This document shows, one piece after another, positions 1 to 4,295 of a stretch of DNA of 64,000 bases. Under the pieces are notes generated by a model. That model saw only the letters and a program-made list of their open reading frames with translations, was not told the DNA's origin and made no database searches. Both the position numbers and the translations under genes were made by a program. The stretch's first letter is position 1; the number at the start of each line of letters is the position of its first letter. The stretch spans positions 54,927 through 118,926 of the forward strand of contig JBDHHQ010000012.1 of the NCBI GenBank assembly GCA_039589315.1, written 5' to 3'. This stretch comes from Gemmatimonadota bacterium (GTDB lineage: Bacteria; Gemmatimonadota; Gemmatimonadetes; Longimicrobiales; Gaopeijiaceae).

Positions 1-827
1 AGGAGCGCGTTGCTGCTTCGGGTCACCTCGAAGGCCGCTTCATACGTGCCCGCGCCCCGGATCGGGAGCAGCACCCGGGCACTGGCTCCGGCCTGGCTGA
101 GGTTTTCCTCTCCGATGAACGCCAGATGGGGAAGAGAGCGGCTCTGGAAGGGCAGCGCGTGGGAGTGCCAGCGGTTCATGGTCCCGAGCTGCTGGAAGAA
201 CTGTCCCAGCTTGAGGGAGAAGCCGCCCGGGAGCGCCACCCACTCCAGATAGGCCTCCTCGAGCTCGAAGCCCGCTTCCTCGCCCCCCTCGCCGTGTCCG
301 TGTCCCTCCTCTCCCTCGAACGGGATCAGCTCACCGCCCGGCGTGTGATACGCGAGGAAGATCTTGGCGCGGGAGTAGGGGTCCAGTGACGATTGGAAGG
401 AGAACTCGAATTCTCTCGGGACGAAGTTGTTCTCGTCGGGGTCGTCCGGGTTGCTGAATGCGAAGAAGTCGGCGTTGACGCTGATCTCCGGGTTGAGCGC
501 CTGCAGCGACCGCTGTCGGCCCACGAACTGCCCCTCCTGAGCCTGCGGGTCTTCGGGAGGGGCGTCCGCCGCGGCCTCCTCGGCGGCCTCGAGGAGCGCT
601 TCCAGCTCGTCACGCTGCTCTTCCTCGGCTCGCGCATCCTCCAGCCTACGCAGGGCGGCGCGGAGACTGTCGATCTCCGCCCGCAGAGAGTCGACCTCTT
701 CACGGATCGAATCTCCTACCTCCTGAGCCCCCACGGCAGACGCCGCTCCCGCCATCGTGGTGGCGATGGCGAGCGCGGTGATCGGCAGCGAAAGCCGCCT
801 CAGAAGTCGGGATGTCGTATACATCAT
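1..827 (-). CDS. Outer-membrane metal-uptake porin/receptor (zinc-regulated TonB-dependent-receptor-like family), 3' part runs off the window
   Basis: Absent from the ORF track (no stop in window). Manual translation from ATG 827: signal peptide, coiled coil, then LNPEISVNAD, EFEFSFQSSLDPYSR, His loop GHGHGE, EEAYLEWVALPGG..KLGQF...G.MNRWHSHALP. Confidence 0.7.
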   Translation of the reverse strand, partial: MMYTTSRLLRRLSLPITALAIATTMAGAASAVGAQEVGDSIREEVDSLRAEIDSLRAALRRLEDARAEEEQRDELEALLEAAEEAAADAPPEDPQAQEGQFVGRQRSLQALNPEISVNADFFAFSNPDDPDENNFVPREFEFSFQSSLDPYSRAKIFLAYHTPGGELIPFEGEEGHGHGEGGEEAGFELEEAYLEWVALPGGFSLKLGQFFQQLGTMNRWHSHALPFQSRSLPHLAFIGEENLSQAGASARVLLPIRGAGTYEAAFEVTRSSNAL

Positions 828-905
828 GAGCCTGATTGCCTGAAACTGACACGCGAGGTGGCTAGCGGCCACACGGCGACTCGCCCCGGAGCGAGGGGCA
901 CCGAT

Positions 906-1235
906 TCAGGCGGCGGGGGGCGCTCTGGGCGGAGGGCGGATGTGCTCGATCTTCGAAAGTGGGACACCGGTGCGGAAGCCATCACGGTCGTCGCGTACTT
1001 CGAGAGATGCCGACTGCGGGCTCTCGGCCCCCAGCACCGCCGTAATGGACTGGATCTGGGAGCAGACGCGGTGGTCGTGGGCGCCCGGGCAGTCGGCAGG
1101 GTCGTGCTGGGGCTCCAGCGTCGTCCGCGCCTGCGCGTCCTGGTCGAGGAGCGTGGGCGCGACCCCCCCGCCCATCGCGAGCAGCAAGGCCAGCGACGTC
1201 AGCATCGTCCTGGACGGGCGGGTTGACGTGTCCAT
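906..1235 (-). CDS. Secreted His/Cys-rich leader peptide with C-terminal RAPP motif (DUF2946/CruR/CutF-like)
   Basis: 109 aa: hydrophobic N-terminus, HDPADCPGAHDHRVC, ends RPPPRAPPAA*; lies 78 nt upstream of the metal receptor on the same strand. Confidence 0.7.
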   Translation of the reverse strand: MDTSTRPSRTMLTSLALLLAMGGGVAPTLLDQDAQARTTLEPQHDPADCPGAHDHRVCSQIQSITAVLGAESPQSASLEVRDDRDGFRTGVPLSKIEHIRPPPRAPPAA

Positions 1236-1386
1236 GGTGTCTCAAAACCGTACGCTGGCGTCCGGCCCGAGTCAACGACCGCCCTCGGACAAGGACGCTC
1301 GCCAGCCAGCACGGGGAACGCTAGCTTGCCGGCCTTCTTGTACAAGCGCGACCCGCTCAGTGGTCCCGATGCGCGAAACAACATGC

Positions 1387-3220: not shown

Positions 3221-3874
3221 ATGACTGGACGCGGAGCACTGGCGTTGACCGACCTCGAGACCTCCACCCCACCTGCGGACACCCCTTCCCTGGGCGCCGA
3301 CCTGACGCACGCCAGCTTCGAGGAGCTGGTGGCCGAGATGATCCGACGCATCGGCGACGACCCGGATCGGGAGGGACTCCAGAAGACGCCCGAGCGGGTG
3401 GCCAAGGCGTGGGAGCACATGGCTCGCGGATACACGAGCAGCGCCGAGCAAGTGATCGGAGACGCTCTCTTCGAGGAACACCATCACAATATGGTCCTCG
3501 TGAAGGACATCGAGCTGTACTCGATGTGTGAGCATCACCTGCTTCCCTTCTTCGGGAAGGCGCATGTGGCGTATATCCCCAACGGTCAGATCATGGGCCT
3601 GAGCAAGACGGCCCGTCTTGTCGAGGTCTACGCACGGCGCCTGCAAGTCCAGGAGCGGCTCACGGAGCAGATCGCTCAGGCTCTTTGGGAGATCGTCCAG
3701 CCCCAGGGCGTGGGTGTCGTGATCGAAGCGGCGCATCTGTGCATGATGATGCGCGGCGTGGAAAAGCAGAGCTCGAAAACGATCACTTCGGCGATGCGCG
3801 GTCTGTTCCTCAAGGACCACCGGACGAGGGGGGAGTTCCTCCGCCTGGCCACCAGCACGCAGCAGCCCCTCTGA
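3221..3874 (+). CDS. folE: GTP cyclohydrolase I
   Basis: [46 protein letters not shown]. Confidence 0.97.
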
Positions 3875-3887
3875 GTCTTCCGACGCG

Positions 3888-4295
3888 ATGTACACGGTAA
3901 GCGTACAGGCCCACTACGACGCGGCCCACTTCCTGGCCAACTACGACGGGAAGTGCAACCGACTCCACGGTCACCGGTACGTCGTCGAGGCGGCCGTCCA
4001 GACGCCCGATCTGGACGCGTCCGGCATCGCCTTCGATTTTGCCGATCTGAAGGGCCTGCTGCGGGAGCTCGCCGACGAGCTCGACCACCAGAACCTCAAC
4101 GATCTGCCTCAGTTCCGGAACGTGGAGACCAGTGCCGAGAACCAAGCGAAGTACTTCTTCGACGCCCTGCGGGCGCGGCTTCCGGATCACGTGGCCGGCG
4201 GATTGATCTACACGCGGGTCTGGGAGGGGCCCAATCAGTGGGCCCAATTCAGCGAAGGGCCCTGGATGGCGCCCCCTGGGCCGCCGGGTACCTGA
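3888..4295 (+). CDS. queD: 6-carboxytetrahydropterin synthase / PTPS family
   Basis: AAHFL, CNRLHGHRY, DFADLK, LDHQNLND, TSAENQA. Confidence 0.9.
   Translation: MYTVSVQAHYDAAHFLANYDGKCNRLHGHRYVVEAAVQTPDLDASGIAFDFADLKGLLRELADELDHQNLNDLPQFRNVETSAENQAKYFFDALRARLPDHVAGGLIYTRVWEGPNQWAQFSEGPWMAPPGPPGT

Follow-up and report, generated by a model that had tools for sequence, protein, structure and literature searches.

A conserved RAPP-ending leader peptide upstream of a porin-ZnuA-ZnuB operon in Gemmatimonadota, a candidate zinc-responsive arrest peptide

Described metal-sensing leaders and the leader of the present window

In the literature examined, the metal-sensing arrest leaders that have been tested are CruR and CutF, both of which respond to copper (PMC9426467; PMC9973294), and no riboswitch has been described for copper or zinc according to Roy et al. 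(PMC9426467). Presented here is a leader gene, an upstream open reading frame (uORF) of 109 amino acids (aa), located at the edge of a 64,000-nucleotide (nt) stretch of Gemmatimonadota DNA (the window, G000:C12:54927-118926) and followed by the genes for an outer-membrane protein, a ZnuA-family binding protein and an ABC-3 permease. CruR (Bp2923) of Bordetella pertussis, of the DUF2946 family (PF11162), needs a RAPP motif, a CxxC motif and a spacing of 45 residues between C93 and R139, a five-residue insertion being harmful to regulation, and Rho acts at a C>G bubble (PMC9426467). CruR arrests in vitro at RAPP (PMC12992588). In CutF of Rhodobacter capsulatus the motif is CxxxC; copper induces its stalling, by which a Shine-Dalgarno (SD) sequence is unmasked (PMC9973294; bioRxiv 10.1101/2025.02.05.636593). 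The metal is read in the cytoplasm by CruR and in the periplasm by CutF (PMC9426467; PMC9973294; bioRxiv 10.1101/2025.02.05.636593). Additionally, a survey of CutF-like proteins has described sites composed of both Cys and His or of His alone, neighbouring efflux genes and metals other than copper, and nickel or cobalt sensing was suggested (PMC9973294).

The features of the leader, in window positions, are the following:

906..1235, minus strand: leader ORF (P0001), a DUF2946/CruR-like arrest-peptide candidate of 109 aa, starting at 1235 and running to 906
1146..1205, minus strand: hydrophobic stretch near the N-terminus (residues 11-30), an export signal or membrane anchor predicted from hydropathy and charge
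1062..1106, minus strand: His/Cys cluster H44-x4-C49-x3-H53-D-H55-x2-C58, predicted metal site
927..1061, minus strand: 45-residue linker (the "ruler"), fixed in length and variable in sequence
915..926, minus strand: RAPP arrest motif R104-P107, codons AGA GCG CCC CCC, two codons before the stop

Residues 44-58 read HDPADCPGAHDHRVC, and the C-terminus is PPPRAPP followed by two Ala and the stop codon; the ORF with its export-like N-terminus, His/Cys cluster and PPPRAPP is present just as a first, sequence-only reading of this DNA had claimed. H55xxC58 is in register with the CxxC of CruR. The leader resembles CruR in being the first gene of a metal-uptake operon, in its export signal, in a last Cys placed 45 residues before RAPP, in a RAPP motif 2-3 residues from the C-terminus, in the long spacer, in the C>G bubble at the leader end and in a poorly structured product, the AlphaFold model being of low confidence (predicted local distance difference test, pLDDT, 69; predicted TM-score, pTM, 0.32) and mostly unstructured, with a helix at residues 9-36. 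Unlike CruR, most members carry HDHxxC in place of CxxC and the promoter is near-leaderless, while the target is a 16-strand porin with ZnuA/ZnuB instead of a copper TonB receptor; operon genes of the CruR type are copper-related, whereas the targets here are ZnuA/ZnuB, ZnuD-like and Czc-type. The proposal of a CruR-like variant outside Proteobacteria agrees with these data, as the phylum is Gemmatimonadota and the Cys-to-Arg spacing of 45 is that of CruR. A small exported product with a His/Cys site and a C-terminal Pro motif, encoded upstream of metal genes, is also shared with CutF and the CutF-like proteins (PMC9973294), although the target here is an importer and an SD-masking stem is not evident at this locus. 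Concerning ApdA, ApdP and the published list of RAPP uORFs, the C-terminal RAPP/RGPP and the small secreted product are common features, but the nine compared entries of that list comprise eight with CxxC and none with HDHxxC (PMC12992588), and an RSPP ending, found in 8 of 79 leaders here, can be set against the RAPP/RGPP of ApdA/ApdP-type peptides.

With somewhat better than even confidence, our analysis takes the leader to be a cis-acting arrest peptide, predicted to switch the porin-ZnuA-ZnuB operon off when zinc is plentiful. In the proposed scheme, a constitutive-looking promoter would yield a near-leaderless transcript, whose translating ribosome would stall at RAPP. Without metal, the stalled ribosome would cover the C-rich leader end, Rho would be unable to load and the uptake genes would be transcribed. 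Metal bound to H53, H55 and C58, aided by H44 and C49, would fold or pull the chain and release the stall, upon which Rho would terminate transcription in the spacer. The scheme follows that of CruR, except that the site is rich in His and the target is of the zinc type. H53, H55 and C58 lie 48-53 residues from the peptidyl-transferase centre (C58 being 48 from the P-site Pro) and the ribosome tunnel holds roughly 30-40 residues, which would place these three ligands outside the exit tunnel.

The leader is a real, conserved, phylum-wide (Gemmatimonadota) and previously unannotated gene. Among 2,439 control genes of the same genome, a RAPP within the last 13 residues was met once, and a hidden Markov model (HMM) of the leader family recognized a single one of 61,697 frames in the genome, namely this ORF (E-value = 1e-20; next 0.22). 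Searches of Pfam and NCBIfam with P0001 gave no match, and a search with the single leader sequence matched two proteins; since the leader is too divergent for such a search, relatives were collected via the porin. An antisense frame of 388 codons (940-2106) was considered as the true gene of this stretch and was judged a shadow because conservation tracks the minus-strand leader frame.

Conservation of the leader family and its targets

The porin query matched 148 of the 401 genomes of the class, and 90 loci with 91 porin genes were examined (the top 30 and 60 chosen across families). An upstream ORF ending in R[AGS]PP was present at 79 of the 91 porin genes (RAPP 62, RGPP 9, RSPP 8), and in a second, partly overlapping set, a leader was present in 65 of the 75 loci whose upstream DNA was long enough, 47 of these leaders being new. 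The leader is always first in the operon, with a spacer of 43-214 nt (median 95) to the next gene. R104, P106 and P107 are invariant among the 79 leaders and H53 and C58 are conserved in at least 90%, so the expected conservation of RAPP and of the His/Cys residues was borne out. The Cys-to-Arg distance, counted from the Cys nearest 45 inside a range of 38-52, is 45 residues in 54 of the 79, 43-47 in 72 and 48 in seven (range 43-48), and it is again 45 in 37 of the 47 new leaders. Concerning the metal site, HDHxxC was found in 53 leaders, HxHxxC in three, CxxC in seven, HxxxxC in eight and other forms in eight; of the C-x3-HDH-x2-C proposed from the sequence as a substitute for CxxC, the HDHxxC core holds for most of the family, whereas its first Cys, C49, is found in just 54 leaders and missing in 25. 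The leaders with spacing 48 (L108, L109, L111, L113, L117, L119, L121) have H-x3/4-C and no second Cys, while in the related L112 and L114 the form is H-x4-C-x2-C and its second Cys stands at 45; it looks like the second Cys of a CxxC form was lost in the former. Relatives are named Gemmatimonadota or Longimicrobiales, as are 79 of the 80 kept loci (the remaining one is an "uncultured bacterium"), the sample being the best 80 of 509 matches and saying nothing on other phyla.

Selection on the leader acts at the protein level, because the Arg of the motif is encoded by all six Arg codons, third codon positions change most (388/257/186 substitutions at positions 3/1/2 in 15 close leader pairs) and the linker evolves fastest (nonsynonymous rate per codon 0.31, compared with 0.15 for the metal site) yet keeps its length. 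An N-terminal export signal was judged present from hydropathy and charge: all 79 leaders have a maximum Kyte-Doolittle 15-mer of 1.5 or more, vs. 7 of 79 for the remaining protein, and the N-terminus is net basic in 76. Such a signal together with His/Cys residues would also suit an ordinary small periplasmic metal-binding protein in which RAPP is incidental, an explanation we find hardly credible given an invariant R-x-PP placed 1-9 residues from the stop throughout, a fixed length with a fast-evolving linker, a mostly unstructured model and a constant first place in the operon.

Leaders of this kind are not restricted to porin operons. The HMM built from the 79 leaders gave matches in 250 of the 401 genomes (0 of 31 in family f4) and to 1,284 clusters at 50% identity, 329 of them at E-values up to 1e-10. 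From 150 matches listed, 40 further leaders were taken that lie away from the porin matches; all 40 end in R[AGS]PP, a motif which the HMM favours. Behind them lie ZnuD-like TonB receptors (23), porins (6), other TonB receptors (6), TolC-type genes of Czc-like resistance-nodulation-division (RND) operons (4) and one lipoprotein at a contig end. The eight ZnuD-like receptors scanned all scored best to NF038289, all under its cut-off, the copper receptor model (OprC) was best-scoring for none of the scanned receptors, and neither a copper chaperone nor a multicopper oxidase was found among the scanned genes behind these leaders. As the targets comprise importers and Czc-type pumps, one leader type heads importers as well as exporters of divalent metals. 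Specifically, L161, L165, L167 and L172 are HDHxxC or CxxC RAPP leaders directly before efflux operons of the TolC-membrane fusion protein-CzcA type, and efflux-linked leaders would need the opposite sign of control. This large family, invisible to Pfam, therefore offers natural variants for studying how the binding of a metal beyond the tunnel relieves or reinforces a stall at RAPP.

The same data bear on a monitor of secretion or envelope redox state like SecM/ApdP, in which Sec pull or a C49-C58 disulfide would set the stall and no metal is bound. The export signal in all 79 leaders and the fact that the targets are all exported proteins would suit it, and RAPP leaders also occur before sec and thioredoxin genes (PMC12992588); one paralogous leader (L190) precedes a receptor and a ResA-like protein. 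We nevertheless regard it as very unlikely: H53 is conserved in at least 90% while C49 is missing in 25 of 79, metal-type transport genes make up almost all of the classified targets, with no sec gene among them, and the fixed Cys-to-Arg ruler is a CruR signature.

The leader family is probably homologous to DUF2946/CruR, though outside the Pfam DUF2946 family, because sub-threshold Pfam matches occur and bridging CxxC leaders are recognized by the family HMM. No member passes the PF11162 cut-off (23.7 bits), neither P0001 nor anything else in its genome giving a match; still, DUF2946 is the top Pfam family of the members, with sub-threshold matches in 12 of 79 (best 21.1 bits). Leaders of the CxxC type above the DUF2946 cut-off exist in Gemmatimonadota (8 of 401 genomes with a match, spacing 44-46), and the family HMM scores two of them, L279 and L278, at 33 and 28 bits. 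The comparison with PF11162 thus fails at the threshold, while homology is detectable. Five CxxC-45-RAPP leaders that score with DUF2946 (L281, L282, L286, L288, L296) stand before an ABC-2-type ATPase gene, a context not described in the available parts of the literature examined.

Several side observations concern the loci themselves. In L065 (G363:C1:616167-627342), the porin-ZnuA-permease operon is tandemly duplicated; an intact leader is found at the first copy only and a short ARGPP-containing remnant upstream of the second. Porin genes without the leader include those of L034-L038 and L064 (genus g76, family f4), also L197, L209, L214 and L237, and in those loci of this kind that were read a TATACT lies 6-8 nt before the porin ATG, which suggests that the porin transcript itself is leaderless. 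Behind the ZnuD-like receptor, a conserved His/Asp-rich lipoprotein of 155-180 aa was found in L154, L168, L170, L173, L175, L181-L185, L187, L189 and L191-L193; that of L154 has no Pfam or NCBIfam match, and in L189 a ZitB-like cation diffusion facilitator (CDF) transporter comes next. A search for the porin in viral contigs and plasmids gave no match.

Promoter, leader end and mode of output

The signals around the leader are again on the minus strand:

1247..1275, minus strand: putative sigma70 promoter, -35 TTGACT (1275-1270), 17-nt spacer, -10 TACGGT (1252-1247)
860..1010, minus strand: C>G bubble, candidate Rho utilization site, at the leader 3' end and spacer start
828..905, minus strand: 78-nt spacer from the leader to the ATGATG of the porin, with a weak SD and small hairpins

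The putative -10 box lies 11 nt before the leader ATG, implying a 5' untranslated region of about 4-6 nt. Such a promoter pattern, the gap being 5-11 nt, precedes 42 of 79 leaders, 0 of 78 porin starts and 0.3% of random sites, while only 8 of the 40 further leaders have it; the promoter of this locus scores 8/12, below the threshold of a strict scan, which found neither promoter nor terminator at the locus. SD-like words precede the leader in only 4 of 79. The transcript is probably leaderless or nearly so, because the promoter pattern lies close to the ATG and SD-like words are rare. A conserved operator around the promoter boxes was not found across the leaders.

The leader end is rich in C. 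The C>G skew is +0.23 here, a value reached by 1.8% of the 2,439 control gene ends (mean -0.07), and the family mean is +0.26, with a positive value in 78 of 79 leaders. At synonymous sites, C/G is 1.5-2.5 at the leader end vs. 0.9 in the 5' half, and the excess of C is present in all eight four-fold codon families. The genome encodes Rho, with two matches to the Rho RNA-binding domain (G000:C12:35642-35863 and G000:C32:26597-26815). An intrinsic terminator was not found at the locus, and Rfam at gathering scores gave no riboswitch or other match over 5 kb.

The distance of 78 nt to the next gene and the lack of a clear SD, both pointed out in the sequence-only reading, were confirmed; the two porin ATGs have predicted SD pairings of -2.8 and -3.4 kcal/mol vs. 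a median of -7.3 at other family loci, whose start codons were picked partly by SD score. The same reading had drawn attention to short alternative hairpins in the spacer. The three pairs exist, GCCCC/GGGGC (899-883), GTGGC/GCCAC (872-858) and CTCGC/GCGAG, but their stability does not exceed that of shuffled sequences (z -0.44) and the spacer sequence is very variable among homologs. They are probably not the switch at this locus and were rejected as such, considering the fold and a start-site opening energy that barely changes.

Opening energies are also what a translational output would act through. If the leader sensed metal but had an output like that of CutF, the stalled ribosome would melt a structure hiding the porin ribosome-binding site. 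On average, opening of the start region costs 13.1 kcal/mol, and 9.4 once the tail under the ribosome is removed (n = 63, 15 of 78 loci having been dropped for doubtful start codons). Occlusion of the porin start by the leader tail exceeds that of all 10 shuffles in 18 of these 63 homologs (about 6 expected), and at our locus the RAPP codons are paired with spacer sequence in the minimum-energy fold, excluding the GCCCC/GGGGC hairpin. However, the energy here barely shifts (8.8 to 7.9 kcal/mol, compared with 8.3 vs. 7.9 when shuffled), the fold is not significant, 23 of the 63 loci do not exceed the mean of the shuffles, and opening energies already drop through truncation as such. In place of the Rho scheme such an output is quite unlikely, although judging from these folds a CutF-style translational output may operate in part of the family.

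The operon, the predicted metal and neighbouring genes

The genes following the leader are, in window or locus positions:

1..827, minus strand: 5' part of the 461-aa outer-membrane protein gene, continuing beyond the left edge (G000:C12:54371)
L001:13131-14372, after the porin: ZnuA-family binding protein (PF01297, 142 bits, above cut-off)
L001:12198-13085, after the ZnuA-family gene: ABC-3 permease (PF00950, 87 bits, above cut-off)

The 461-aa protein had been taken for an outer-membrane receptor, a claim that did not survive. It contains a signal peptide, a periplasmic coiled coil, a predicted 16-strand porin barrel and a His/Glu-rich loop; its AlphaFold model is confident (pLDDT 89, pTM 0.81), and the best Foldseek matches are the porins OmpT, OmpM1, OprB, chitoporin and OprP. 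A TonB-dependent receptor, with 22 strands and a plug, was rejected on the strand number, the absence of a plug (no match to a Plug or TonB domain of Pfam) and these Foldseek matches; by its predicted structure, the protein is a porin-like channel and, still uncharacterized, a candidate zinc channel. Synteny with receptor and znuABC had been anticipated beyond the left edge, and the linkage of porin, ZnuA and ZnuB is indeed conserved, but an ABC ATPase is missing from it: a motif scan downstream of the Znu genes found none in 56 and 57 loci with enough sequence (operon L001:12198-15754 and homologs), and the gene after the permease in our genome is convergent. The porin C-terminus (L001:14369-14400) bears a nearly invariant GPHKHE(T)Y tail past the last strand, where the usual terminal Phe is replaced; it is possibly a periplasmic metal hand-over site. 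A divergent porin subgroup (L155, L160, L162) ends in GAHAAH-x-F. In L058-L060, L062 and L063, tblastn covers only the first ~366 porin residues in one piece and the frames are open to a normal C-terminus, which implies that a late loop carries an insertion.

Judging from the genes involved, the ligand is most likely zinc, because three target types point to it and the two Fur-family proteins of the genome resemble Fur and PerR. These targets are an AztC/ZnuA-like binding protein with three His, ZnuD-like receptors and Czc-type pumps. The best NCBIfam model of the binding protein is AztC, below cut-off, and His occupies the three ligand positions in 98-100% of 85 sequences; three-His sites favour zinc. 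A Zur-like protein was not found in this genome. The operon is like the Zur-regulated znuABC, znuD and aztABC systems in combining a ZnuA-family binding protein, an ABC-3 permease and an outer-membrane entry protein, yet unlike them it lacks a conserved promoter operator, a Zur-like protein and an adjacent ATPase, and its entry protein is a porin. Five leader-less genomes were compared with five leader-bearing ones to see whether the leader takes the place of Zur: in both groups most had one Fur-like and one PerR-like protein, while a further unclassified paralog was present in G010 and G362, which bear the leader.

The same arrest mechanism could instead respond to manganese, cobalt, nickel, cadmium or copper, or to several metals. 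Cluster A-I binding proteins are promiscuous, manganese-binding proteins are among the matches of the binding protein and Czc pumps also export cobalt and cadmium. Furthermore, His-only CutF-like proteins precede the nickel/cobalt genes HupE/UreJ (PMC9973294). Three separate target types nevertheless favour zinc, and the scanned genes behind the 40 further leaders include no copper chaperone, multicopper oxidase or OprC-best receptor; another metal is therefore unlikely. A simple ligand code, with HDH for zinc and CxxC for copper, found no support: CxxC leaders too precede ZnuD-like receptors, so ligand type is no predictor of target.

Against a zinc-tuned, Rho-dependent leader the following has to be weighed. 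Twelve of the 91 porin genes have no leader (seven from genus g76, plus L048, the second copy of L065, L107, L115 and L116). The five leader-less genomes are likewise without an extra Zur-like paralog, CxxC leaders of the same phylum also stand before ZnuD-like receptors (L279, L294), and all metal-specific NCBIfam scores are under the curated cut-offs, with manganese-binding proteins close behind. The C>G bubble is equally strong before efflux pumps (0.28-0.53) and hence gives no direction of control, while the 18 loci with an occluded porin start point to a translational output in part of the family. Finally, RAPP by itself is insufficient for arrest (PMC12992588).

A still wider proposal, which we put forward only tentatively and consider rather doubtful, is that throughout Gemmatimonadota a leaderless-transcribed nascent peptide replaces a zinc transcription factor. 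HDHxxC would read zinc directly where the Sec channel opens to the periplasm, held there by the ruler during the stall, and would turn importers (the new zinc porin, ZnuD-like receptors) off and Czc pumps on with zinc. If the leader is tuned to zinc, the arrest-peptide scaffold would be a general metal-sensing platform with a changeable ligand set and a fixed ruler, and this would be the first zinc-sensing ribosome-arrest system found in the literature searched. Neither HDHxxC leaders nor arrest peptides that respond to zinc or come from Gemmatimonadota were found reported there, the survey supplements, which may list such leaders, being incompletely covered. The word "zinc" is absent from the main texts on CutF (PMC9973294; bioRxiv 10.1101/2025.02.05.636593), zinc and Gemmatimonadota are unmentioned in the main text of the RAPP survey (PMC12992588), and the first half of a 2024 metallostasis review mentions neither CruR, CutF nor uORFs. 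Non-copper CutF-like leaders are already anticipated in the literature.

Outside the leader operon, folE (GTP cyclohydrolase I) and a PTPS/QueD-family gene are located at 3221-4295 on the plus strand; we take their products to be zinc enzymes, but being outside the operon they give no clue to the metal. Divergent from the leader, at 1387-2837 on the plus strand, one gene encodes a small protein that resembles an outer-membrane beta-barrel and matches no family, and the next one encodes a lipoprotein in which the HExxH motif of metalloproteases is present (weak M7/M10 matches).

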